From positions 22,806 through 86,805 of the forward strand of contig CAWHBB010000007.1 in the NCBI GenBank assembly GCA_963827485.1: a DNA stretch of 64,000 nt. The letters run 5' to 3'. The stretch's first letter is position 1. Each line of letters begins with the position of its first letter. Under the pieces are notes generated by a model, which was given only the letters and a program-made list of their open reading frames with translations, was not told the DNA's origin and made no database searches. Both the position numbers and the translations under genes were made by a program. Positions 17,454-44,500 of the stretch are shown piece after piece. This DNA comes from Chlamydiia bacterium (GTDB taxonomy: Bacteria > Chlamydiota > Chlamydiia > Chlamydiales > JAAKFR01).

Positions 17454-19900
17454 ACTCAGGAGTGTGGTAGGTGACCTCGAAGGAGACCAGCTCATCGCCT
17501 ACCGCAACTTCGCTAAAGCCGGAAAGAAGAATGCCACACTCAAGGCCCTTCTTCACCTCTTTGACATCGTCCTTGACCCGCTTGAGAGAGGCAATAGTGC
17601 CCTTCCAGACCCTCTCGCCCGCTCTTTCGACCCGTATCGGCATATTTCTGGCAATGGTTCCATCGGTCACCATGCAGCCAGCAACAGTGCCCAGGGTGCT
17701 CACAGGGAAGATCGCTCTCACTTCAGCACGGCCGAGATCCTTCTCTTCAGGAATCTTATCGAGCATGTTTTTCATCAGCTCCTTCACATCGTCAACCGCG
17801 TGGTAGATGATGTCGTGCAGCCGGATCTGTACCCCTTTCTCTTTGGCCATAGAGCCTGCCTTGCTCTCCACCTGGGTGTGGAAGCCCATGACCACCGCAG
17901 AGGAGGCAGCAGCCAGCTCGATGTCAGACTCAGAGATCTCTCCAATTGCAGCAAAGAGAACGTCGACCTCGATTTTTTTCGATCTGATCTTCGCAAGAGA
18001 GCTCTTGAGCGCCTCAAGCGACCCCTGCACATCGGCTCGAAGCACCAGCTTGAACACCTTTTTCTCTTTTTTCTCAGCCTCGGCGCTCAAGCGATCGAGA
18101 AGAGGCGCCTTCTTCTGCATGAGCACCTGAGCCTTATGGCCCTCAGCACGCATCTCAGAGATCTCTCTTGCCTCCTTCTCGTTTTTGACCACGACAAAGA
18201 CATCGCCCGCTTTGGGCAGCCCCGAAAGGCCGGTGATTTCGACAGGAGAGGAAGGTCCCGCCTCTGTCAGCCGCTTGCCACGCTCATCTTGCATCGTCTT
18301 GATGCGGCCAAAGAGATGGTCGATGACAAGCGCATCGCCCAGTCTCAAAGTTCCGTTTTGGACCAGGATCGTTGCAACCGAGCCCATGCCCTTGTGCAGT
18401 TCAGACTCTAAAACAATCCCACGCGCCCTTGTGGTGGGGTTTGCGCGTAGCTCAAGAACTTCTGCCTGCATCGCTAGCATCTGAAGAAGCTCCGGTATGC
18501 CCTGGCCTGTCACCGCAGAGGTGTTGACAGTGATGGTCTGCCCTCCCCAAGCTTCGGGAAGAAGCTCGATCTCAGAGAGCTGCCGATAGACATTTTCTGC
18601 GTTGAAGTTGGGCTTATCGCATTTGTTGATCGCCACCATGATCGTCACCTGGGCGCTCTTGGCATGCTCGATAGCCTCTTTGGTCTGCTCGCGGATCCCT
18701 TCGTCACCTGCAATCACAAGCACCACAATATCAGTGACTTGAGCTCCTCTTGCTCTCATGAGCGAGAAGGCTTCGTGGCCCGGGGTGTCGAGCACGGTGA
18801 TATCGCCGACCGGCGTTGTGCAGCGGAAGGCGCCGATGTGCTGGGTGATCGCACCCGCCTCCTGGGAGGCCACATTGCTCTTTCGGATAGCATCGATCAG
18901 GCTGGTCTTGCCATGGTCGACGTGGCCCATGAAGGTGACAACGGGAGGTCTGAGAGAGATTCTCGCCCTCTGTTTTCGCAATCTCTTCGCGCACGCTCGC
19001 CTTGACGACGCTGATCTTGTCTTCTAGGGTGCGGTCGACGGTGATCTCACAGGCCAGCTCGGTTCCGATAAACTGGACCATCGTCTCGTCGTCGAGAAAG
19101 TCGTTCAAGGTGAGGGTAATGCCATGCAGAAAGAGCTTCTGGATGAGCTCTGAGGTCTTTCGCTTCATCTTTTCTGCAAGATCTTTGATGGTGATCGGCA
19201 GGCGCACCGAGATCTGGGTCGGTCTCGAGGAGATCTCCTCGACTTGCATGTAGCTCTTTTTCGCTCGCTTCTTTCTCCAGCGATCGTCCTCTTCTCCTGC
19301 ACCGTGCGGTCTGAGCGGTTTATCGGCCTTTGGCTTGAGGTCGCGGAACTCCCGAACTTTCTTCTTCTTCTTGTCAGCCTCGCTCTCTACAGGGGGCGCT
19401 GCCTTTGCAGGTGCGCTTGGAGGGGGTGTGGGTGAGGATCTGATCACAGGCGTACGGAAGCCAGGTCGTGGAGTAAAGGCCGGTCTTGCTGGGGGGGCCT
19501 TGGGCGCTGCGTGCGGTGTGGGAAGCGGGGAGAGAGGCGGCTTTTCCTCTTCGGCTTTCTCTTTCGCTGGAGCCTTTTCCTCTACGGCTGCCTTTGGAAT
19601 CTCCTCTTCGACAGGGGCGGGCTCCTCGACAGCTGCAGGCTCCTCTTTGCTTGCCTGGGCAGCCGCTTCGGCCAGCTTTTCCTCTTCAGTAAGAGGCTCA
19701 AAGGAGGAGCGCGATTTTGCTCGGATGCGGCGAGGCTGCTCTTCCTCAGGCAGGGCGGCAGCAGCTGGCTTCTTGGGAGGCTCTTTCTCTTTTTCCTTCT
19801 CCTTCTTAGGCTCCTTCTCCCCAGCGAGCTTTGCCTTCAGCTTCTCCAGATCGGCGCTCTTGCCGAGCTGGATTTTTTTAATATTGAAGTTCTTTGTCAA
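17449..19900 (-). CDS. infB: translation initiation factor IF-2, read as two overlapping ORFs by an apparent 1-nt frameshift near 18960..18975
   Basis: The 389-aa N-terminal ORF (18731..19900) has a K/E/P/A-rich N-domain and ends with [30 protein letters not shown]...[11 protein letters not shown]. The 510-aa C-terminal ORF (17449..18981, TTG-extended) starts at [24 protein letters not shown] and continues through the complete G domain and C-terminal domains. Deleting one nucleotide in the CTCTCTC tract gives ...[21 protein letters not shown]. Confidence 0.8.
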
Positions 19901-19903
19901 CGC

Positions 19904-21181
19904 TCAACCTTTCTTTTTTGTTCTGCAAGACTCCTCGAGAATACGGTAGGCCATCTCTAGGCTAATGCCAGGGACAGCCGCAATCTCAGCAGGAGAGGCC
20001 CGTAGAACCTTCCTCAGCGTATCAAAGCCGGCATGAACGAGGTTTTGGAGGATCAATTTATTGATGCCCTCGATCTGAAGAGGCTCATCGAGATCTGCAC
20101 TATCCGATTCGGAGAGCTCGTAGCGCTGGATTTCGAGCATCTTGTTGAACTCGCTCATGCGCTGCACCTCGAGCGCGTAGCCGATGAGCTCGGAGGTCAG
20201 TTTCGCATTGGATCCACGCTTGCCAATCACAGTCGCATAGTCGCCATCATCGACGACGATAGCGATGCTCTTCTCCTCTTCGTTGACAGCCACTTTGCGC
20301 ACCTCGATCGGGGAGAGGGCATTTTGCAGGAGCTGCATCGGATCGGGGCTGTAGGGAATGATGTCGATGCGCTCGTTGCCAAGCTCGCGGATGATATTCT
20401 TGACCCGGTTACCTCTCATGCCGACGCAGGCGCCCACCGGATCGACCTTCATATCGTTTGATCTCACGCACATCTTCGTGCGGTAGCCCGCCTCTCGTGC
20501 GATGGCAGCGATGGTCACGGTCCCATCTTCGATCTCAGGCACCTCTTGAGAGAAGAGCTGTTTGACAAAGTCGGGGTGGCTGCGCGAAAGAATCACCTCA
20601 GCGCCCCCATCTTCCATATCCTGTACGCCCTGGAGAAGGGCAAGAATCTTGTCGCCAAGCTTGTATTTTTCGGTCTTGGGGTAGTTGCGCGCAGGTAGGA
20701 GCGCCTCCACTTTGCCAAGGTCGACAACCAGGCTAACCCCTCGGACAAAGCGCTTGACCACACCCGATACGATCTCGCCAATTCTGTGGCGATACTCTTC
20801 GTGGATGACCTCGCGCTCAGCCATGCGGATGCGCTGAGAGATGATCTGGCGCGCAGTCTGGGCGGCGATGCGTCCGAAATTCTGAGGAGTGACAGGGACA
20901 TCGATGAACTGGCCGAGCTCGCAGTCGGGGTCGAGAGAGCGCGCCACTTTGAGATCGATCTCTTTGCCAGGCTGGTGGACCCCTTCGACGATTTTTTTCT
21001 CGCAGAAGACCTCTACGTTGCCTGTCTTGGGATGGATCTCAACGCTGACATTGGCATCTTCTCGGAGGCTCTTGCGAGCTGCTGCCTTGAGCGCCGTCTC
21101 GATGGCCTGGATCAGGGTCTCGCGTTTAATCCCCTTCTCCCGCTCCATGTACTCAAAAATAGCTATGAGATCTTTATTCAT
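19904..21181 (-). CDS. nusA: transcription termination/antitermination factor NusA
   Basis: 425 aa. It has the NusA N-terminal domain, S1 and KH domains and a C-terminal acidic repeat. Confidence 0.9.
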   Translation of the reverse strand: MNKDLIAIFEYMEREKGIKRETLIQAIETALKAAARKSLREDANVSVEIHPKTGNVEVFCEKKIVEGVHQPGKEIDLKVARSLDPDCELGQFIDVPVTPQNFGRIAAQTARQIISQRIRMAEREVIHEEYRHRIGEIVSGVVKRFVRGVSLVVDLGKVEALLPARNYPKTEKYKLGDKILALLQGVQDMEDGGAEVILSRSHPDFVKQLFSQEVPEIEDGTVTIAAIAREAGYRTKMCVRSNDMKVDPVGACVGMRGNRVKNIIRELGNERIDIIPYSPDPMQLLQNALSPIEVRKVAVNEEEKSIAIVVDDGDYATVIGKRGSNAKLTSELIGYALEVQRMSEFNKMLEIQRYELSESDSADLDEPLQIEGINKLILQNLVHAGFDTLRKVLRASPAEIAAVPGISLEMAYRILEESCRTKKKG

Positions 21182-25766: not shown

Positions 25767-25839
25767 GGGGACTTAGCTCAGTTGGTAGAGCATCTGATTT
25801 GCAATCAGAGGGTCAGGAGTTCGAATCTCCTAGTCTCCA
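25767..25839 (+). tRNA. tRNA-Ala (anticodon TGC)
   Basis: Cloverleaf folded by hand: acceptor GGGGACT/AGTCTCC with G3:U70, D-arm GCTC-AGTTGGTA-GAGC, anticodon loop TTTGCAA, T-arm AGGAG-TTCGAAT-CTCCT, 73 nt. Confidence 0.85.
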
Positions 25840-25876
25840 TAGTGCAGCTGCAAAGGCAGCTATTCTCGAAACGCCC

Positions 25877-25950
25877 GCGGTTATAGCTCAGTTGGTTAGA
25901 GCGCGACACTGATAATGTCGAGGTCCCAAGTTCGAATCTTGGTAACCGCA
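25877..25950 (+). tRNA. tRNA-Ile (anticodon GAT)
   Basis: Cloverleaf folded by hand: acceptor GCGGTTA/TAACCGC, anticodon stem CGACA/TGTCG with loop CTGATAA, T-arm CCAAG-TTCGAAT-CTTGG, 74 nt. Confidence 0.85.
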
Positions 25951-34035: not shown

Positions 34036-34781
34036 TTACAGCTTAAAGAGGTAGTTCAAGCCCAATCGAAAGGCATCGACATGGCTCTTGCCGATGGAGA
34101 CATTGAGGCCATTATTAGGAGTAGCGGCGTTGGGGAATATGACCCTTTTGGTAGGACCGCTGCCAAATTGGTAATGCAGGTATTCGGCACGCACCGACCA
34201 TCTCGAAGCAATCATGCGCTCATAGCCCGCGCCCACAACCCAACCCGTTTTAGTCTTGCTGAAGTTGCCAGATGTAGCCTGGCCATATACTGCCGGTGCA
34301 GTTTCCGCAAAATCGAGTGTTTTCCCCTTGAGATGCGCCCAGGCAGCGCCCCCCGTTACATAGATAAGGCTTGATCTCCATACCATCCCCAAGCGGCCGC
34401 GGATAGTGGTTAACCATTGGAGGTCAGCATATACCGATGATGCATTGGTTGACATGTCTAATGTCGGTGGCAGAAAACCTGGAAAAATGGTGCTTTTATC
34501 TTCTATACCGAGTACCGAGCATCTGACCTGCTTATTGAAACCGACTTGGCCTCCAAAAAGCGGGCCATTGATCTGATTGTGAACCGATTGGGGTGTGAAA
34601 TCGTTTATTGCCGTCACACCAAATGGGGTCGCATTGTAATTGCTTGGGACCAACCCCAACCGCCGTTAAAGCCGATGTAGGTGCTAGTCCAGCAAGGATT
34701 AGGAGAGCAGTTGATGTTAGCAGAGAGAGCGGCATGTCCAAAAAGGAGCACTAAAACCGAACATAGAGAAAAACGCTTCAT
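34036..34781 (-). pseudogene. OmpA/Opa-like outer-membrane beta-barrel paralog, frameshifted near 34650..34666
   Basis: Reading from ATG at 34781 gives a signal peptide MKRFSLCSVLVLLFGHAALSA...GFNGGWGW, then a stop. The ORF 34036..34659 in the +1 frame continues with homology to the 61121-63686 paralogs (TTIRGRLGMVWRSSLIYVTGGAAW...GWVVGAGYERMI...RLGLNYLF). The frame break sits in the GGCGGTTGGGGTTGG tract. Confidence 0.55.
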
Positions 34782-34879
34782 ATAACCCCCGTAAGCCTTT
34801 GTTCGAGCTATGCCGAATCTCTATCTTATTTGGAAATATTTTTTTGATGCCTTAATGGTAAAGGCGGGTAACAAAGGAT

Positions 34880-34923
34880 CTCCGGGTGTAGGATTCGAAC
34901 CTACGACCAATGGATTAACAGTC
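34880..34923. repeat. 44-bp direct repeat of tRNA-Asn 3' end (distal att site of integrative island)
   Basis: Identical to 44402..44445 (ctccgggtgtaggattcgaacctacgaccaatggattaacagtc). Confidence 0.85.
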
Positions 34924-35148
34924 TTGTGCAACCCCACAGGTCACAACAACGCACGAATGGTAACGGCAATAAGATTAAATGTTTAGAGAAATTTGCTTTT
35001 GGTAGTGGCTTGTGGCGTTTGGCAGTTTTTTGCCACGGAGTGGGGTAAAAATGGGGAATGATTATCTTCACATAAGTACTGGAATTGGCCTTCTTATTGT
35101 ACCACAAGGGCCTCCAATCAATCTTGCTCTTTAATTTAAATACATGAC

Positions 35149-35562
35149 TTGTTAAAATATACAAAATTTGGTATGCTCATGGTTAGTGAAGAAAGGCATC
35201 TAGAGTACATATCCTCTAGCAAGAAGGATTTAGAAAAACTCCCATTGGATGTAAAAGAAATATTCATTCACGGACTAGAGTTAGCATTAATCGGGGAAAA
35301 GCACCCTGATGCTCAGCCTATGAAGGGTTTTGGTGATGCGAGTGTACTAGAGATTCGCGAAAGACATAAAGGGGATGCCTATAGGGCAATGTACACAGTG
35401 AGATTTGAAAAAGCTGTATATGTCCTTCATGTCTTCAAGAAAAAAAGCAAGAAGGGGATTGCAACGCCAAAACAAGATATTGATCTAATCAAGGCAAGAC
35501 TTAAAGCAGCAGAAACCCATTATAAGGAACATTTTAAGGGTAAGAAAAAAAATGGAAAATGA
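35149..35562 (+). CDS. type II toxin, RelE/HigB (Gp49-like) family
   Basis: 137 aa. The motif YRAMYTVRFEKAVYVLHVFKKKSKKG is typical of Gp49/HigB-like toxins. It overlaps the next gene by 11 bp. Confidence 0.6.
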   Translation: MLKYTKFGMLMVSEERHLEYISSSKKDLEKLPLDVKEIFIHGLELALIGEKHPDAQPMKGFGDASVLEIRERHKGDAYRAMYTVRFEKAVYVLHVFKKKSKKGIATPKQDIDLIKARLKAAETHYKEHFKGKKKNGK

Positions 35563-35944
35563 AGAAGAAATTGTAGAAAGTTCCGGAAATATTTTTGAGG
35601 ATCTCGACTTTCCTGATGCTGAGGAAGCTCAAGTCAAATCAAAATTAGCAATCGAGATCTTTCTCATCATCAAAGCAAAAAAGCTGACCCAAAAAGAAGC
35701 TGCAAAAATCATGAAAACAGATCAGCCCCATGTTTCCGACATTTTGAGAGGCAAATTATCCAAGTTCACGATTGATCGGCTTTTTCGTTGTTTACTCGCA
35801 CTTGGCAAGGACGTCGAAATCAAAATTAAAAACCCGAAAAGTAAAACTGAGTCGCCTAGAATTTATGTGAGAGATGGTACAAAAAGAGCACCCATAGCCG
35901 TCAAGGGAGCTGCTAAGCAAGTATCAAAAAAACTCCGGGTGTAA
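35552..35944 (+). CDS. HTH (XRE-family) antitoxin, HigA-like
   Basis: 130 aa with a helix-turn-helix (LTQKEAAKIMKTDQPHVSDILRGK). The toxin-first gene order matches higBA-type modules. Confidence 0.55.
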   Translation: MENEEEIVESSGNIFEDLDFPDAEEAQVKSKLAIEIFLIIKAKKLTQKEAAKIMKTDQPHVSDILRGKLSKFTIDRLFRCLLALGKDVEIKIKNPKSKTESPRIYVRDGTKRAPIAVKGAAKQVSKKLRV

Positions 35945-36094
35945 GATTCGAACTTACGACCAGTGCATTAGCAGTCTTGTGCAACCCCACAGGCCACAAC
36001 AACGCACGAATGGTAACGGTAATAATAAATGTAGCAGCTTGTGGATTTTGATCATTTTTTCGCCGCGGAGTGGGGTGAAAGTGGGAAATGAATA

Positions 36095-37165
36095 TTAATC
36101 AATAGGGTTTAAAAGAATAGCATGGCCATCGCCAATACCCACCATTTGACCACGGTCATTAATACCAGCTACGTGACTAATACTGCCAACAGGGCAGCTA
36201 AAATCAAAAGCTAAATTTAATATTTTATTTAGATCGATTTTTTCTTCTCCATCCAAGATAAAAAACCGTATAGGGTAATACTGTTGACCATATGTTGATG
36301 TGCCAACTATTTGGCCGCTGTTGTTAAGGCACACTGGGAAGAAATCTTTGTGTAACTTCAGGCCTGTTTCCCTATCCAAAATATAGCCATAGCAATCCCA
36401 ATCAGAAGTTAGAAGCGTACCAATTGCAACTCCTTGGTTGTTCAGCCCTTCGCAGCTTGCATAGCCTTTGAAGTAAAATACATCATCATAGCGGCCGGTT
36501 TTCGGATCAAGGAATCGAAATACATTTTTTTGGCGATCCAATGCATCGACTAAAAAACAATCTTTCTTAGAATTGAATCTGGCAGAAATGATGTGATGTC
36601 CGAAGTTGAGAAAATCACCATCATTCCAAGTAAAAAGAGAAGTAATGCCATCTTCTGTTTTGAAAAAAATCAACTGGCCATCATTGCATATATCAAATAA
36701 CCGCAAGTAATTGTTTATGCAATTTGGAATAGCAAGCTTCTTGAGATTTCCATTTCTCAAAATAAAGAACTCCGGAAAATTTTTACCTATAGCACAGCTG
36801 CGTTCGTCACGTATATGAACGTCATATTGAACGGCGAGTGTTCCGTCATTATTTAACACTACTTTTTGCGCATAACTATGCTCGAATGTCTTAATTCCAC
36901 TATTCACAATCGGAGTAATATGGTCTTTGATTTTAAGCTTTTTGAAGCCATTGATTGGATCCCAAAGGAAAACTTTTTGACCCTCACCGTTGTCATCATT
37001 GTAAAGACCGCAGACCTGTCCCTTCTCATTGATCGAAAGATCGCTTACACTTTTTACGTCTGTAACTCCATAATCCAGAACCATAACTTGATATTTTGAT
37101 ATTGCAAAAAGCGAGGGAACGATACCGCAAAAAAACAAAATTGAGAGAAAAAACTTAAAAAACAT
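36095..37165 (-). CDS. secreted HAF-family extracellular repeat protein
   Basis: 356 aa with a signal peptide. Repeated NxxGQVVG-type motifs occur (INEKGQVCG, LNNDGTLAV, LNNQGVAIGT, LNNSGQIVGTS, INDRGQMVGIGDGHAILL). The gene is very AT-rich. Confidence 0.5.
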   Translation of the reverse strand: MFFKFFLSILFFCGIVPSLFAISKYQVMVLDYGVTDVKSVSDLSINEKGQVCGLYNDDNGEGQKVFLWDPINGFKKLKIKDHITPIVNSGIKTFEHSYAQKVVLNNDGTLAVQYDVHIRDERSCAIGKNFPEFFILRNGNLKKLAIPNCINNYLRLFDICNDGQLIFFKTEDGITSLFTWNDGDFLNFGHHIISARFNSKKDCFLVDALDRQKNVFRFLDPKTGRYDDVFYFKGYASCEGLNNQGVAIGTLLTSDWDCYGYILDRETGLKLHKDFFPVCLNNSGQIVGTSTYGQQYYPIRFFILDGEEKIDLNKILNLAFDFSCPVGSISHVAGINDRGQMVGIGDGHAILLNPID

Positions 37166-37423
37166 TGTTTATCTAAACATTTACATTTGGAAGAGTTAGA
37201 TTATATTGAAAAACGATGAAGACGTCAAATAAGACCGTTGTTTTCGATTTATTTTAATTTGGGGTTTTTGCATGCAAGAGGGTAGTGGTGAATGGCTTAT
37301 CCTGACTTCCGTGATGCATTTCCATTGCCACTAGGAAATCAATGAGTTAATTTTTTTGCATCACGTTACACATATGCCCTCTCTAACAGAGTTGTAGTGA
37401 TCTGGCGATCTAATCGAGTCGCC

Positions 37424-38041
37424 CTACAAATAAGCTCTCATCAGAGATGCAAATCCTTTTAACCCGCTAAATTTAGCGATTCCCCTTATCATCAATTCTT
37501 CATGCAAAGCCTCTATTTGATCTCTAAGCCTGTAGAATGTCTTCCAATGCATCCATTTGGGCTTGTCTAAAATGAGATCCGAATCAGCTCCAAGCTTGCG
37601 AATAATGGCCCATTTCTTATCAATTAACCGATCCAATGCGGTCTTGTTTTGGCTTCGATAGGCGAGATTCAGGCATGTTCTGCACACAAATACCGGCATC
37701 CCATCTGATAATCGATAGAGATAGAGCTTACCGCATCGTCTTAGGCATTTTGGATTAGGACATCGCATCCAATATCTAGAGTTCCCATAGTTGGCCTTAG
37801 ATTGCACGAACTGGATGCGCAAAATCCTTGTGTTATCTTCTGATACGTAGCGGATTTCCATGTGGCTTCGCAACACCAAGACTTTTAATCCATGAATAGG
37901 AATTTCTATGCCTTGTTCTGGCAGCTTCTGCATAATCTTGAATAGGAACATGCCTGCGCTGATCGATTTATGCTCCTGAATAAACCCTTTCGTTCTATGC
38001 GTATTGAAACGTATGCATGTCCCTGAGCCTGGCCCCCCCAT
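37424..38041 (-). CDS. hypothetical protein with Cys4 zinc-ribbon motif (island cargo)
   Basis: 205 aa with CPNPKCLRRCGKLY...FVCRTC. No recognisable family. Confidence 0.35.
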   Translation of the reverse strand: MGGPGSGTCIRFNTHRTKGFIQEHKSISAGMFLFKIMQKLPEQGIEIPIHGLKVLVLRSHMEIRYVSEDNTRILRIQFVQSKANYGNSRYWMRCPNPKCLRRCGKLYLYRLSDGMPVFVCRTCLNLAYRSQNKTALDRLIDKKWAIIRKLGADSDLILDKPKWMHWKTFYRLRDQIEALHEELMIRGIAKFSGLKGFASLMRAYL

Positions 38042-38315
38042 TATTCCACCTATACCGCTATTCTATACGAAATCATTAGGCAACCTTATTCCATTCACTT
38101 TTTGCCTAATTGTGAAAAACGCCCTAGATTTTGATAAGTTTATCAAATACAACCCCAAGCTTTCTGAGTCTCCACTTTTGCGCTGATGTTGAAGGCTGGT
38201 CTTTACATTTGTTATGTAGCACCTCCTCTGCAGCTTTCCTAAGCTCATCATTCGTCATCGATCCAAGATCTTCACCCTGCATACCTTACTCTCTAATTTT
38301 TTTTAATCGCATAGT

Positions 38316-39323
38316 CTATGAGCTTTCAATATTGCTAAGAAACCACTCGTTCAAATTGAGTCCTTGTTCGATCGCCTCTCCGATATCTTTTCCTATGGGC
38401 ACTGGCAATGGCCTTGCATGTGGGTATAGCTTTTGCCACTTAGCCAGCATCGCCATGCCCCCTTCGTCATTATCATGGCAGATAAGAAGGTAAGGTTTGC
38501 GCTTTGCCCAGTAATCCGCGACATTGTCGGGAGTCTTGGTATTGCTTCCAACCGAGATGCAAAAGGCAATATCACCACACGCATAGTGTGCTGCCAATGC
38601 GTCTAGCTCTGATTCCACTACAAGCATTACTAGCCGTTGAAAAGACCCTACGATATTTAAGCCATTCATAGACCCCCTCAATTGCCAATATTTAGGAAGA
38701 TCGTCATCAACTTTCCATTGGGTGCGCCGTATCTTTACCCGGGTCACCTTGCCTGAAGGCTCAAGCGAAGGAATCACTATACCTCTAGGTAAAAAGATCT
38801 TTTTTTTGCCTTCTAATCCGAACTCCTCCGGTGACACCCAGGTGTCATTGATACAATAACCAAGCTTATAACGCTCGATTGCATCCTCAGGAAGGCCTCT
38901 TGATTTTAATTTTGCGAACTTAGCAGGGGACAATCTGAGCTGGCCATTTGCCCAATCAACGAATTCCAGGGCCCGTTCACACCACTTATCATTAGGAGGG
39001 ATAAGAGTCGGCCTAGAGAACGGCTGCTCAATGTGGGACATTTGTGAAGGCCGCAGAGTTATCTCTGCGTTGACGCGCTTACATGCATCTTCAAATGAGA
39101 GCCCTAGAAAGTCACGACAGAACTGGATCGAGTCGCCTCTTTTCTCGCATTTCCTACACCAATAATTGCCAATGCAATTCCTTGAAGGCGATCGAGGCCA
39201 CATACGAAATCTGTCACTGCCGCCGCAGGCAGGGCAGCTTGATGAATATTCGCTTCCTTTAGGCGAGCTAGATTCGAGCTTCGGATTCAGCCCTACCTCC
39301 TTTGCCAGTTCAAGTAAAACCAT
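38316..39323 (-). CDS. DNA primase, zinc-finger (CHC2-like) plus TOPRIM domain
   Basis: 335 aa with CPACGGSDRFRMW...CRKC, then TOPRIM-like acidic motifs (LVVESELDALA; CHDNDEGG). Confidence 0.65.
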   Translation of the reverse strand: MVLLELAKEVGLNPKLESSSPKGSEYSSSCPACGGSDRFRMWPRSPSRNCIGNYWCRKCEKRGDSIQFCRDFLGLSFEDACKRVNAEITLRPSQMSHIEQPFSRPTLIPPNDKWCERALEFVDWANGQLRLSPAKFAKLKSRGLPEDAIERYKLGYCINDTWVSPEEFGLEGKKKIFLPRGIVIPSLEPSGKVTRVKIRRTQWKVDDDLPKYWQLRGSMNGLNIVGSFQRLVMLVVESELDALAAHYACGDIAFCISVGSNTKTPDNVADYWAKRKPYLLICHDNDEGGMAMLAKWQKLYPHARPLPVPIGKDIGEAIEQGLNLNEWFLSNIESS

Positions 39324-39968
39324 CTATAAATCCTTTTAGGTCATAGTAGATCATTTTGGACCTAGTTCTGGTCATCGTAGAAATGTGCTGTAACTTGCTC
39401 ATTTTCATCGATTGGCTACAGATGTCATGGTGGTCGGGGCATTTTGGAACTGCTAAGTAAAAAAATCATTGGGCTGCTGTGCTGAACTCTCATATCTAAC
39501 GCTATGGATCCTTATTTGTACTATGTCCGCACTATGACCACTATGACCATCTATTGAAAATGAAAGACTTATGGTGTCATGCCTACTATGACCGAGCCTT
39601 GGTCGAGGATGCATCTGCTGTGACCACGCTAACTCCATATAGAAGATCGACCTTAAAACTTTTTTCGAAATCCTTTCTTGCTCTTCCAAGTCCTGGAACG
39701 ACGTATAGATTTTCTCGCTTAGAGGATTCTGATCTCGCCCTCTTCTGATAATTGAGCTAATGTGCTCTGCCTAGGCTCTGCCTTAGCCTTTCTTTTGAAT
39801 CATGGAACAATCCTTGCTTCTTGCACCAATTGCAATAATAGTTAAATACTGACCTCGGTAGGGATTTCATTTTTCATTCATAAGACGGCTCTCGATCTAA
39901 TCTGCCGATGTTGAAGCAACCGGTTGATAGGGCCTCGTAGATATATTTTTCGGGTGTTCGAGCGCTCA

Positions 39969-41103
39969 TCATTTTACTTCAAACGCTTCTGTATCGGGTG
40001 CGGAGGATTCTAGATCGTATGCAGAGATGTCTTCATTGAGAAGTTCATAGAGAAGCGCTTGTAGACCCCCATTTTTCATCTCATCGGCAATCGCTTTGAA
40101 GTACTGGGATGTCTTCTTTGTGAATATCGCTTACTTTTAAGACCAGGAAGCGCCGATCGTCTGGATCGATGTGAACTGGCCACTCTTCATTACTCGAGAT
40201 GATCACGTGCTTGAAATTGCGCACCATGATTCTATCTTTACCTTTGCCCTCGATTAGTGAGAATTCGTCGGTGACCATAGACTTCAGGACGCCAATATCC
40301 TTCTTATGTCCGCCCCATATGGCCTCGTTGGCGTGGATTAGGACTGCGTTCTTGAGATGAAAGTTGAATTGACCAAGGAGCTGCTGAATGTTATCTAACG
40401 GAAGGTAGTGAGCGCCAAATACCTCTCCTATGGGGTTCACAAAAGTGTTTTTCCCCACTCCTTGCTGGCCCATTAAGACAAGGCCAGTTGCTAGCAAATT
40501 GGGATGTTGAACTAGATGGGCAAGCCATTTCCAAACATAGGTGAAGTGTTCTGGTTTGCCTGCGCAAATCACTTCTAAGATGTGTTTCTGATAGAGATCG
40601 CAGCTTCCTTTTTTCTGCTCAATAGCAAAGCCCTTCCACATGTTATAGAGGCCATTTTTGTGCCCTGTGGTCGTCGGATCAAATGTGATCCCTTGATACT
40701 GGCGTCGTTTAGGGTGCGCTAGCCACAATCTAGCTACGTTTTTTGGCTTGCCATCTTGCCCTGCGATGACTCTATTCTCATATGTGTTTAGGAAAGATTG
40801 TCTGCTCTCTAGGGTGAAATCAACCCCTTTGGAAAATGGATGAGGTTTTTCAGTGAGGATATAGAACTGGTCTGTGTGTATCACAGCATGTTTTTTATTT
40901 AATTCCTCAACTGTTTTCTCTTCGGGAGGGAGCAGATTGTGAGCTTTTTCTTGCAGTTCTATGAGCTTGCTTATTTTGTCAGAGTCCCAGGTGTCGCTCC
41001 CTGGGATATCCTTCAGTTCAACTCTCAACAGATCTTCAACGGAGAAGGCCAGTCCGAGTGCTGCAAGTTCACTTTTGATGTTCGATTTTAAATCAGACAT
41101 CAC
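39969..41103 (-). pseudogene. P4-type primase C-terminal/helicase (D5-like NTPase) gene, frameshifted near 40100..40125
   Basis: The 340-aa ORF 40081..41103 has a Walker A (LMGQQGVGKNTF) and ends at ...SDIHKEDIPVLQSDCR. The +1 frame continues with a plausible protein tail (KTSQYFKAIADEMKNGGLQALLYELLNEDISAYDLESSAPDTEAFEVK, stop at 39969). Confidence 0.55.
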
Positions 41104-41354
41104 GAATCAATCCCATAGGTTTTTAAGTTGGTTGAGCTATTGCGAATGAATTCAATCACACTTGCTTGGGGAATCACGCGGCGGCGTGGTGAGATCTTGA
41201 CATAGGGCAAGAGACCTTTTAATAAAGCCATGCGAGCTGCTGCCAAGGAACCAAAAAAGCCGACAGAGGTCAATTCTCGAAGCGAATAAAAGGGTTTGTC
41301 ACCTATCGCTTTATGCAGTTCAGCAATTAATGCATCTAAAGGTAATGTGGGCAT
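41100..41354 (-). CDS. AlpA/excisionase-like HTH DNA-binding protein
   Basis: Likely start MPTLPLDALIAELHKAIGDKPFYSLRELTSVGFFGSLAAARMALLKGLLPYV. It is short and sits next to the primase, as in P4-like elements. Confidence 0.4.
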   Translation of the reverse strand: MPTLPLDALIAELHKAIGDKPFYSLRELTSVGFFGSLAAARMALLKGLLPYVKISPRRRVIPQASVIEFIRNSSTNLKTYGIDS

Positions 41355-41702
41355 AGTCTTCTCTGTATAAAGAAAGCCATGCAGAGATTGATGGGGTACG
41401 TCTTTATGAGATCCAATGAATATATCTATTGAATCCCAAGAAAGCGTTTGATAAATTAGGATCACAAAGAGCAGTGGTATCAACCTTGCTATTTAGCCGT
41501 GAGAAAGGTGCGAACTTTTTCACGGTTTTTTTGTGACCTTTATCATAATTTCACCATCTCTGCATGGCTTCCTCTAGTTTCTAGTTAATTTAAATGATCC
41601 AAAGTCTATCTTTGACTTTTAATGCTTCTAATAGCTCTTGATCTATTTTATTTTCAAGTATTTGTTGCTATGTAATGTAAGTGGCTCACTAATTTAAGCA
41701 GT

Positions 41703-41951
41703 TTACTTATTGTCATGGTTTGTGATGATTTGCTCAATGTTGCCATTCTTCTCTTCAATCCAGCGAAAAAACTCCTGTTCGTTGATCAGCACTCTCCTTC
41801 CACAGCGGCGCAGCACTTTATTGAACCCATTCCTTTCCGCATGAAATATCAAATGGCGTAGTCCACCTGCTGGCGGCCATGCATGTTTCTTACACCACTC
41901 GCTCACGGTGAGGTAGCTAGGTTGGTTGCAGTTACGTATTTCTGATGACAC
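41703..41951 (-). CDS. small HTH/excisionase-like protein
   Basis: 82 aa with LTVSEWCKKHAWPPAGGLRHLIFHAERNGFNKVLRRCGRRVLINEQEFFRWIEE. Confidence 0.4.
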   Translation of the reverse strand: MSSEIRNCNQPSYLTVSEWCKKHAWPPAGGLRHLIFHAERNGFNKVLRRCGRRVLINEQEFFRWIEEKNGNIEQIITNHDNK

Positions 41952-42064
41952 ATTGCCTCCTTATTTTTTTGCCATTCCCCAGAGGCCATTACAGGCATGC
42001 TTAGGATTGCTCATCATTGTACCAAAAGGGGAGTGGTATGAAATTTGCCATTTTCAAATAGACA

Positions 42065-43075
42065 TCATGTGGTCGGCGGCAATTTTCCGTGAATTCTTAT
42101 GTGATTGATCATTTGGTATTTGCTATACTCTGCGATGCTATTTACGCAGATGTTGCGCGCAGTGCTTGCTATTATTTGGGGTGCGCCATCGAGGTATAAA
42201 GCGACTACCTGATTTTGTAAAAACTCCTCGACAAACTCATCCACGGTCATTTTATCAAACTTTTCCTTCTTCAGCGCCATTAGGACCCATACAGCAGTTG
42301 ATATGGCTGTACACAGTAGAGAGAAATGATAGTGAGGCAGTTTGCCATTTCCTTTTCTCAAGACTTCAGGAATGGGATGGGGAATGTACTGACGAGGTTT
42401 GGTTTCTTTGGGCGCAGAGGGCGGCCGACCGCGTTGTCCTGGCTCACCAAATAGTGTATTTATTGCCCTGAGCACAGATTTATGCTCTTTATCTGTTGGG
42501 TAGCCAGTGTCGAACGCCTTTTCTTGTTTGTAGCACTGCATTAAAGGATGCTTGTATATGTCCGCAGCCCGGTGCAAATTTGGGTTCAATGTTAGGACGA
42601 ATTGGCCAATGATCTTGTTTTTTACCTTGTTCTGAAGCGGAACAGTAAGCTTGCAATCCGCTATTTGCTTAAACCCTAAGACCTCCAGGAGGTCTTTTGG
42701 AAGGGTTAATTCTCTGCGGAGAGCCCACACGATTACTGCTTCAGAGGGTACAAGATAGGTGATACCATCAGATAAATACTCAAACCTCGCTGCTAGTTCA
42801 CCTTTTTCGATCGAGTCTTTCATTGCCAAGAAGATCTCCCGAAACGCTGCTCCAGTGGATTTGAGGTCGAAGTTTGCTTCGGGGCCTGGCAGAAAAAATG
42901 AAGGACGGTCTTCCTTAATCTCTGCTGGTAATGGGGAGACATGAGTATAATATAAGCCTTCTTTGGGCCACTTGGTCAGCACAAAGGCTGCTTCATGGAT
43001 TGCCCACCATCTAAAGTTGATGAAAGCGTCCATGGAAGGAGGGCAAAACGGTTCTCTGTTCATATTATTACCCAA
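42065..43075 (-). CDS. hypothetical protein in the int-alpA cargo position of the island
   Basis: 336 aa with no recognisable motif. It overlaps the integrase gene by 8 bp. Confidence 0.4.
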   Translation of the reverse strand: MGNNMNREPFCPPSMDAFINFRWWAIHEAAFVLTKWPKEGLYYTHVSPLPAEIKEDRPSFFLPGPEANFDLKSTGAAFREIFLAMKDSIEKGELAARFEYLSDGITYLVPSEAVIVWALRRELTLPKDLLEVLGFKQIADCKLTVPLQNKVKNKIIGQFVLTLNPNLHRAADIYKHPLMQCYKQEKAFDTGYPTDKEHKSVLRAINTLFGEPGQRGRPPSAPKETKPRQYIPHPIPEVLRKGNGKLPHYHFSLLCTAISTAVWVLMALKKEKFDKMTVDEFVEEFLQNQVVALYLDGAPQIIASTARNICVNSIAEYSKYQMINHIRIHGKLPPTT

Positions 43076-44126
43076 AGATTTTCTCGTTCATATTGGAAAT
43101 CACCTTGGCTGTATGGTTTTCAGAGAGGTGTGAGTACCGTTTCACCATACTGAGTGTCCTATGCCCTAGAACTTCAGCTATTTCAGCAAGGCTGGCTCCG
43201 TTCATTGCCAAATAAGAAGCGCACGAGTGTCTCGTATCATGAAATTTTAAATTGATAACGCCACTCTTCTTCACCGCAAATTCCCATGCAGAACGAATAT
43301 CGATGGGTTTTTTGGGGAATTTGCCAGGAAAGAGGTAGTGGGTATCTAGGCGTCTACACTGGTTGAGTTGGTGAAGAAGTTCGAGAGCATGGCCAGTAAT
43401 CGCCACCTGGCGGATTTCTCCGTTTTTGGTTTCATGTAGGATGACTCGGCCCTTATCGAGATCGACATCGGCCCATTTGAGGTGCAGGATTTCGGCTTGA
43501 CGCATACCTGTAGATAGGGCCAGCACGACTATCGTGTACAAGTAGGGGTTTGTGCTCTGTTGGCATGCCTCCAGTAGTTTTGCTCTTTCATCGTCGTCTA
43601 AAAATCGGACTCGTCCGCGAGGCTCGCGAGGTTTCGTGACCTTTCGAATAGGAGAGTCTTCGATCCACCCCCATTCCTTGATGGCGATTGTGAAAGCATG
43701 CGATAGGGCCGCCAGATACCTGACAACGGTCGCAGGGCTTCGGATCTTCCCTTGTTTTGTGATACCTCTGAGGAGAACATCTCTTTGTTCTGCAATCATA
43801 GCAGGGGAGACATCGGAGAGGAGGTAACCGCCGAGTTGCTGCTTCCACCAGATCAATTGAGAGCCCTGGCGCTGCTTACATTTGTGTTTGGTAGGAAGCA
43901 CATCCCTAATGTAGCGGTCGATGAGTGCGCCAAGAGTGTGCTTTTTGGCCTCGGTCGTTTTGAAATGCCGTCCTTCGCGGATCGCAGATTCGGTTTGCTG
44001 GATCCAACGTTCGGCATCGGTCTTCCTTTTGAATGAAGCATATTGCGGAGGGCTTCCCTTAATCCTGACCTGGACATGGAAGCGGGTTTTGCCGTCTTTG
44101 TCTTTGAGTTCTTTGATTGAAGCCAT
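43068..44126 (-). CDS. tyrosine-type site-specific integrase (phage integrase family)
   Basis: 352 aa. The C-terminal catalytic region reads HDTRHSCASYLAMNGASLAEIAEVLGHRTLSMVKRYSHL (R...HxxR...Y). It lies adjacent to tRNA-Asn. Confidence 0.85.
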   Translation of the reverse strand: MASIKELKDKDGKTRFHVQVRIKGSPPQYASFKRKTDAERWIQQTESAIREGRHFKTTEAKKHTLGALIDRYIRDVLPTKHKCKQRQGSQLIWWKQQLGGYLLSDVSPAMIAEQRDVLLRGITKQGKIRSPATVVRYLAALSHAFTIAIKEWGWIEDSPIRKVTKPREPRGRVRFLDDDERAKLLEACQQSTNPYLYTIVVLALSTGMRQAEILHLKWADVDLDKGRVILHETKNGEIRQVAITGHALELLHQLNQCRRLDTHYLFPGKFPKKPIDIRSAWEFAVKKSGVINLKFHDTRHSCASYLAMNGASLAEIAEVLGHRTLSMVKRYSHLSENHTAKVISNMNEKIFG

Positions 44127-44401
44127 ATTTTTTTCCTTCTTTTATCGGTTCAAAATGCACCCAGGGGATTCTTATTCTCCTGGGTTGGATTGCATGGATG
44201 TCTCGTAAGAAAGTGAATTTATGGCTTGCAAGATAGGCGATTTCCCCATTTTTGCCCCACTGAAACACAAACTTAACACTATTAAAACATCCATGCATTC
44301 GCTCTGTGTTGTGATGATGTGGGGTAAAAGTGGGGAATAACGTATCCCCGGAAATGAAAAAGGCACCTAGGTTTTTGGCCTAAGTGCCTGTTAATCTGAA
44401 A

Positions 44402-44473
44402 CTCCGGGTGTAGGATTCGAACCTACGACCAATGGATTAACAGTCCACTGCTCTACCACTGAGCTAACCCGGA
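44402..44473 (-). tRNA. tRNA-Asn (anticodon GTT)
   Basis: The reverse complement folds as TCCGGGT-TA-GCTC-AGTGGTA-GAGC-A-GTGGA-CTGTTAA-TCCAT-TGGTC-GTAGG-TTCGAAT-CCTAC-ACCCGGA-G, 72 nt. Confidence 0.85.
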
Positions 44474-44500
44474 ATAGAGCCTGCTATCTTATGCGAGCGG

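Follow-up and report, generated by a model that had tools for sequence, protein, structure and literature searches.

A frame break at a TC repeat in infB of a Chlamydiota bacterium, best described as the loss of one dinucleotide unit

The infB gene, which encodes translation initiation factor IF-2, is interrupted in the 64-kb stretch of a Chlamydiia contig (CAWHBB010000007.1) that was analysed here and that is called the window in the following. Its coding sequence is distributed over two minus-strand open reading frames (ORFs), whose frames are offset at a short tract of four TC units, (TC)4. As judged from the comparison with related sequences, the lesion is best described as the loss of one TC unit (2 nt) from a (TC)5 tract and not as the insertion of a single nucleotide. 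The most likely cause, to which we assign a probability of roughly 60%, is a slippage-type sequencing or assembly artefact, and the frame break most likely reflects no new biological mechanism. The gene itself is best explained as an ordinary, single-copy infB in the nusA-infB-rbfA-truB-ribF cluster of a Chlamydiota bacterium, with an IF-2 protein of about 817 amino acids (aa).

One infB gene in two halves

Reading of the window places an N-terminal ORF at 18731..19900 and an ORF with the G domain at 17449..18981, both on the minus strand and offset by +1. The frame break is thus real in this sequence, and one infB gene is present in two halves; this confirms the observation of the initial annotation that infB is divided between two ORFs with a +1 offset at a CT/TC tract. 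The tract tctctctc occupies minus-strand positions 18959..18952 and the surrounding motif gagaatctctctcag positions 18964..18950. The latter had initially been placed at 18960..18974, about 10 nt off, while the wider interval given for the lesion (18955-18980) does overlap the site. Where a bacterial IF-2 should be encoded by one uninterrupted ORF, the reading frame is here offset by +1 at 18952-18959. Apart from this, neither half shows a further lesion when the translations are read. The N-terminal part comprises a low-complexity region rich in Lys, Glu, Pro and Ala together with the IF2_N subdomain, and the G2-to-C2 core carries the GTPase motifs, including NKCD and the P-loop GHVDHGKT. A second infB copy is not present within the 64-kb window.

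The assignment was examined with NCBIfam TIGR00487, the IF-2 equivalog model, which has a curated cut-off of 424.4 bits. Model positions 4-75 match the N-terminal ORF, which scores 38 bits alone, and positions 82-580 match the G-domain ORF, which reaches 666.5 bits alone and hence lies above the cut-off. When the two parts are repaired and joined, the resulting protein matches positions 4-580 with 711.9 bits. Likewise, Pfam IF2_N is found at residues 235-274 of the N-terminal ORF, while GTP_EFTU, EF-G_D2, IF-2 and GTP_EFTU_D2 are found in the G-domain ORF. With the TIGR00487 and Pfam matches split between them, the two ORFs are confirmed as the halves of one gene. Across both ORFs the IF-2 domain order is preserved (IF2_N, GTPase, domain II, IF-2 (C1), C2), and the gene shares domain set, GTPase motifs and operon context with bacterial IF-2 as described by TIGR00487. 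Chlamydiota IF-2 proteins are 52-69% identical to the window protein.

Length of the junction in related IF-2 sequences

A comparison with infB of related Chlamydiae, as had been proposed in the initial annotation, was carried out at both the protein and the DNA level. A search of 5.8 billion protein clusters, from which the 120 best matches were listed, returned IF-2 proteins of Chlamydiota genomes and metagenome-assembled genomes (MAGs), the best full-length homologue having 66% identity. All 120 listed homologues are single chains of 649-973 aa. Scans of genome and metagenome contigs provided 159 further related loci, with best tblastn segment identities of 64% in the genome contigs and 57% in the metagenome contigs. 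Among the related loci, the start of the G domain could be recognised in 136, and in none of these does a stop codon occur in the 90 codons upstream of it. Of these loci, 77 belong to chlamydia-like sets, in which most of the named records are MAGs of chlamydiae, and in none of these 77 is a CT/TC tract of at least three units present at the junction. The infB gene is a single ORF in all relatives examined, whereas in the window it is interrupted at (TC)4.

To compare the length of the junction, we measured the spacer from the Asp of a conserved anchor, F-x-G-x-E-x-x-C-x-I-x-[IV]-D, to the RPPVV motif. The spacer is 28 aa long in all 112 anchored homologous proteins and in 69 of the 71 anchored related loci, the two exceptions (L131 and L137) having spacers of 27 and 26 aa. 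In the window, removal of a single base, which gives ENLS-RPPVV, results in a spacer of 27 residues, while restoration of one TC unit, which gives ENLSL-RPPVV, results in 28. A profile hidden Markov model (HMM) built from the 120 homologues scores the latter protein with 1241.9 bits and the former with 1234.7 bits, a gain of 7.2 bits. In line with this, ENLSL-RPPVV follows a common pattern in which RPPVV is directly preceded by a hydrophobic residue, with a Leu two residues further upstream; ELIL, KLHL and NLIL are examples.

The +1 position of the downstream frame can equally be produced by a 1-nt insertion or by a 2-nt deletion. The initial annotation had favoured the former, with ENLSRPPVV as the repaired peptide, and an uninterrupted ORF for IF-2 does result when one base is removed; moreover, the shorter spacers of L131 and L137 indicate that a shorter linker is possible. 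However, the 28-residue spacer found in 181 of 183 anchored homologues and the 7.2-bit penalty for the 27-residue version both speak against an inserted base, be it an error or a mutation, and slippage on a dinucleotide repeat would be expected to remove a whole unit rather than to add a single nucleotide. We therefore consider a literal 1-nt insertion, with ENLS-RPPVV as the true protein, to be improbable. It is the 28-residue spacer together with the HMM preference that leads us to describe the lesion as the loss of one unit from (TC)5. With this unit restored, the true linker that joins the IF2_N subdomain to the GTPase domain would contain GAG AAT CTC TCT CTC AGA CCT, corresponding to ENLSLRP. 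Loss of one dinucleotide repeat unit is a classic product of strand slippage, either by a polymerase in vivo or during sequencing and assembly.

Origin of the missing repeat unit

While the frame break, its place on the tract, the 28-residue spacer and the lack of such a break in relatives are shown directly, we infer a technical origin of the missing unit. Accordingly worded as a sequence of events, the unit would have been lost as a slippage-type indel in sequencing, consensus calling or assembly, and the (TC)4 tract thus left two nucleotides short would shift the G domain to the +1 frame. This reading is preferred because both halves of the gene are pristine, the lesion has the form of a slippage product, relatives do not share it, and neither a start signal for the second half nor a recoding signal is apparent. 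An assembly or sequencing error had also been the leading explanation of the initial annotation; this part of its interpretation stands, whereas the type of lesion, the repaired peptide and the coordinates had to be revised. The sequence alone cannot separate a technical indel from a very recent deletion by replication slippage.

The repeat context of the window bears on this question. Dinucleotide tracts of at least 8 nt occur 18 times in the 64 kb and make up about 0.24% of the bases. Of these, 17 are of the AG/CT type, corresponding to about one per 3.5 kb, and are found mostly inside ORFs; this bias is compositional and creates many potential slippage sites. Since the tracts cover only about 0.24% of the window, an indel is unlikely to fall on one of them by chance, and the link between break and repeat points to slippage. 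In this respect the infB lesion resembles the frameshift "pseudogenes" that result from indel errors or slippage, in which the loss of one unit from a short tandem repeat breaks an essential gene that is intact elsewhere; another gene of the window is broken too, in a homopolymer-rich zone. It differs from them in that the repeat is short (4-5 units) and that 15 similar tracts are unaffected. Phase-variable (contingency) genes typically possess long repeat tracts and are non-essential surface, restriction-modification or virulence genes. The present tract, with four units (five in the inferred intact state), lies in infB and is of a kind common in the window, and thus does not belong to this class. 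A home-made scan for frame breaks by codon-usage coding potential was noisy, with antisense frames also scoring positive, and was dropped.

Several observations weigh against a technical artefact. The 15 other AG/CT tracts of at least four units sit in uninterrupted ORFs, so that a systematic error in calling such tracts is not indicated, and the housekeeping genes of the window are for the most part intact, so that the assembly is not generally poor. An independent assembly was not matched: five proteins of the window were looked up by exact sequence (those of the two infB ORFs, of the NusA-like ORF and of a Cpn60-family (GroEL-like) ORF, and one outer membrane protein (OMP)) and gave no record, and the nearest IF-2 relative is only 66% identical, so that the comparison includes no junction from a near-identical strain. 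The break lies at the G1/G2 domain boundary, and E. coli IF2 without residues 1-387 still supports growth (PMC12919033); therefore, a real lesion might be survivable. Finally, an island at a tRNA-Asn gene in the window holds multiply broken genes that resemble genuine decay, and real frameshift mutations therefore probably exist in this genome.

Two further regions with frame changes were found in the window. A gene of the OMP beta-barrel type (Pfam OMP_b-brl) is broken at 34036-34781 on the minus strand, where a signal-peptide ORF (34614-34781) and a barrel ORF (34036-34659) share 46 nt and have the frame offset that a 1-nt deletion would produce; G4, C3 and C4 runs occur in the shared stretch. 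The frame break reported initially near 34650 is hence real, and this second broken gene of a conserved type suggests that the assembly carries a measurable load of indels. In the island, a frameshift had initially been ascribed to the primase, whose ORF (38316-39323) looks intact; the breaks lie instead downstream of the gene for a DUF5906/VapE-like NTPase. There, at 39900-40130 on the minus strand, coding continues in another frame (SQYFKAIADEMKNGGLQALLYELL...), with at least two frame changes within about 150 nt. This multiply frameshifted island gene is probably a true pseudogene resulting from the decay of a mobile element. Indels of technical as well as of biological origin are thus plausible in this genome.

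An unlikely, though by no means negligible, alternative to the artefact is that the 2-bp deletion from (TC)5 to (TC)4 arose by replication slippage and is real, be it in the sequenced organism as such, in most of the sequenced population or in a subpopulation. Slippage occurs naturally at short dinucleotide repeats, (TC)5 would be joint-longest in the window, the other tracts of the same type were called without frame breaks, and genuine-looking pseudogenes are present in the island. Under this explanation, three routes of survival are conceivable. First, the GTPase-to-C2 core could be translated from the TTG codon at 18981, with the N-terminal part made as a fragment of 389 aa. Second, ribosomes that now and then slip spontaneously on the CU tract could produce a certain amount of full-length IF-2. 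Third, the intracellular population could be mixed or polyploid, with complementation of the defect by intact copies. The first route gains weight from E. coli, in which IF2 variants without residues 1-294 or 1-387 sustain an infB-null strain (preprint PMC12919033, citing Laalami et al. 1991). The 1-387 deletion removes N1, N2 and G1 and therefore leaves approximately what the G-domain ORF of the window encodes; it grows at about 50% of the wild-type rate (PMC12919033). The window ORF corresponds almost exactly to this construct (PMC12919033, PMC3334882), and under laboratory conditions the N-terminal extensions of IF2 are described as not being required (PMC12919033). Moreover, the G-domain ORF alone passes the equivalog cut-off.

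The features of the junction argue against such a split gene. TTG at 18981 is the only start available to the core, being the sole ATG, GTG or TTG codon that the G-domain frame offers from the upstream stop to RPPVV; no Shine-Dalgarno sequence of the AGGAG or GGAGG type is found 5-12 nt before it (upstream sequence GCGCGAAGAGA), nor is there a promoter-like site in front of it. The E. coli isoforms IF2-2 and IF2-3 are initiated internally and in frame, at starts that possess initiation signals of their own, whereas the core in the window lies in a different frame and begins with a TTG that has no Shine-Dalgarno sequence, and thus is not a comparable internal start. Furthermore, the IF2_N subdomain that would be lost belongs to the universal bacterial IF-2 model (TIGR00487 positions 4-75), the single ORF is kept in 136 of 136 related loci, and a naturally split infB was not encountered among the relatives examined. 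No secondary decay or adaptation is seen in either half, which would require an extremely recent event, and selection would act strongly against a null or severely hypomorphic allele becoming the consensus state of an essential gene.

Programmed frameshifting, which would make (TC)4 the functional allele and regulate the ratio of the N-terminal fragment to full-length IF-2, was also considered. In a -2 variant, the P-site tRNA-Ser would slip from UCU at 18955-18953 back to UCU at 18957-18955 and thereby yield ENLSL-RPPVV; in a +1 variant the product would be ENLS-RPPVV, with the junction peptide ...EGENLSRPPVVTF.... The -2 slip has the attraction that the tRNA re-pairs perfectly (UCU to UCU) and that the product has the 28-residue spacer of the homologues. 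In addition, a Shine-Dalgarno-like GAGGG precedes the UCU codon by 10 nt, a spacing similar to that which stimulates backward slippage in dnaX. However, GAGG occurs 24 times in the 2.45-kb infB mRNA and has a density of 6.8 per kb over the window, and with such motifs this frequent we judge the GAGGG to be incidental. The shift site is not conserved, the break being found in none of the 136 related loci and none of the 120 proteins. A stimulatory downstream structure is absent as well: folding of 101 nt beginning two bases upstream of the tract gives a minimum free energy of -26.5 kcal/mol compared to a mean of -25.7 kcal/mol for shuffled sequences (z = -0.23), and 70 of 200 shuffles fold at least as well. 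The 0-frame A-site codon is not a stop but CAG, which is common (21.5 per 1000), and AGA is also not rare (13.1 per 1000). Two adjacent tRNAs could not re-pair in tandem, since a -2 shift takes CUC to AUC. Lastly, an abundant essential factor would need a highly efficient shift, which nothing found here supports.

The comparison with known recoding systems leads in the same direction. The likeness consists in a gene for a translation factor (as is prfB), the possible P-site re-pairing on UCU and the upstream GAGGG. Unlike the +1 type of prfB, the window has neither a conserved shift site nor a slow (stop or rare) A-site codon, and its GAGGG is located 7-10 nt upstream where about 3 nt would be expected of a Shine-Dalgarno-like element; unlike the -1/-2 type of dnaX and viruses, it has no stable downstream hairpin or pseudoknot. 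The literature search provided no paper that relevantly links infB, frameshifting and Chlamydiae. Given the lack of conservation, of structure and of a slow codon, programmed frameshifting appears most improbable, in agreement with its low ranking in the initial annotation. Transcriptional slippage was rejected as a candidate in its own right: known slippage by RNA polymerase needs long homopolymeric A/T runs, which the (TC)4 tract is not.

Gene neighbourhood and further features of the window

The ORFs that neighbour infB follow an order which fits the nusA-infB-rbfA-truB-ribF cluster, the names being derived from the translations and not from a family search (Table 1). In the closest relative found (L160), infB is followed by genes with RBFA and TruB_N Pfam matches.

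Table 1. Positions of the infB parts, junction elements and neighbouring ORFs in the window
Feature	Position	Strand	Remarks
infB N-terminal part, frame 0	18953..19900	(-)	TTG start at 19900; last codon TCT (Ser) at 18955-18953
infB G2-to-C2 core, +1 frame	17449..18951	(-)	AGA (Arg of RPPVV) at 18951-18949; stop at 17449-17451
Out-of-frame tail of the N-terminal ORF	18731..18952	(-)	73 nonsense codons past the junction, ending ...SSSH, then stop; overlaps the G-domain coding sequence
(TC)4 tract, frame junction	18952..18959	(-)	plus strand GAGAGAGA; intact state inferred as (TC)5
GAGGG, Shine-Dalgarno-like pentamer	18966..18970	(-)	upstream of the UCU codon
TTG codon	18979..18981	(-)	candidate start in the G-domain frame
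NusA-like ORF	19904-21181		resemblance by sequence; name from translation
rbfA ORF	16908-17342		name from translation
truB ORF	16099-16896		name from translation
ribF ORF	15180-16118		name from translation

The island mentioned above extends over 34868-44494 at a tRNA-Asn gene (44401-44474, minus strand) and has a low GC content of 39-45%, compared to about 50% in the window. Direct repeats of 105 nt delimit it and are located at 34868-34972, at 35921-36025 (90% identity) and at 44390-44494 (61%), which suggests two tandem insertions. Besides the primase, the island encodes an integrase (43068-44126) and the DUF5906/VapE-like NTPase (40081-41103). Two small ORFs next to each other on the plus strand (35149-35944) are a candidate toxin-antitoxin-like system.

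Three tandem paralogues of cysteine-rich OMP beta-barrel proteins are encoded at 61121-63686 on the plus strand. They are mutually 63-72% identical, share the C-terminus ...LNYRFGDLC(G/S)CFF and are distant relatives (about 32%) of the broken OMP at 34 kb. Such tandem cysteine-rich OMPs and a GC content of about 50% recall Estrella lausannensis, whose draft genome has 48.2% GC and was built from Illumina reads of 33 bp (PMC4333871); an infB variant is not listed in a resequencing study of Estrella (PMC5513546). This resemblance carries no weight in the present interpretation. Directly before them, two further tandem paralogues (58887-60044 and about 60049-61044, plus strand) are 52-54% identical and begin with MFPAP(C/Y)EP..FTHAS. 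In these paralogues (58.9-61.0 kb), of which one copy had initially been read as a frameshifted F-box gene, we found neither a frame break nor a Pfam F-box match; indeed, they have no Pfam match at E <= 1e-3. A tRNA-Ala(TGC) and tRNA-Ile(GAT) pair is located at 25767-25950 on the plus strand, between a DUF4019 gene and the gene of a LysE-type translocator.

In conclusion, with an artefact of the slippage type as the preferred explanation, we recommend annotating the locus as one infB gene in which a deletion of 2 nt is suspected at 18952-18959, and giving the protein with ENLSLRPPVV and not with ENLSRPPVV. Other frame breaks in this assembly, such as that of the OMP gene at about 34650, call for caution before the respective genes are designated as pseudogenes. 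It is distinctly improbable that (TC)4 is both real and fixed, with either a -2 slip of tRNA-Ser on UCUCUCUC or a naturally split IF-2 as the consequence. Should it nevertheless apply, either outcome would be the first of its kind to occur naturally in a bacterial infB: a true (TC)4 would represent a natural test of whether the N-terminal region of IF-2 is separable from the GTPase core, or a rare bacterial site of -2 recoding.

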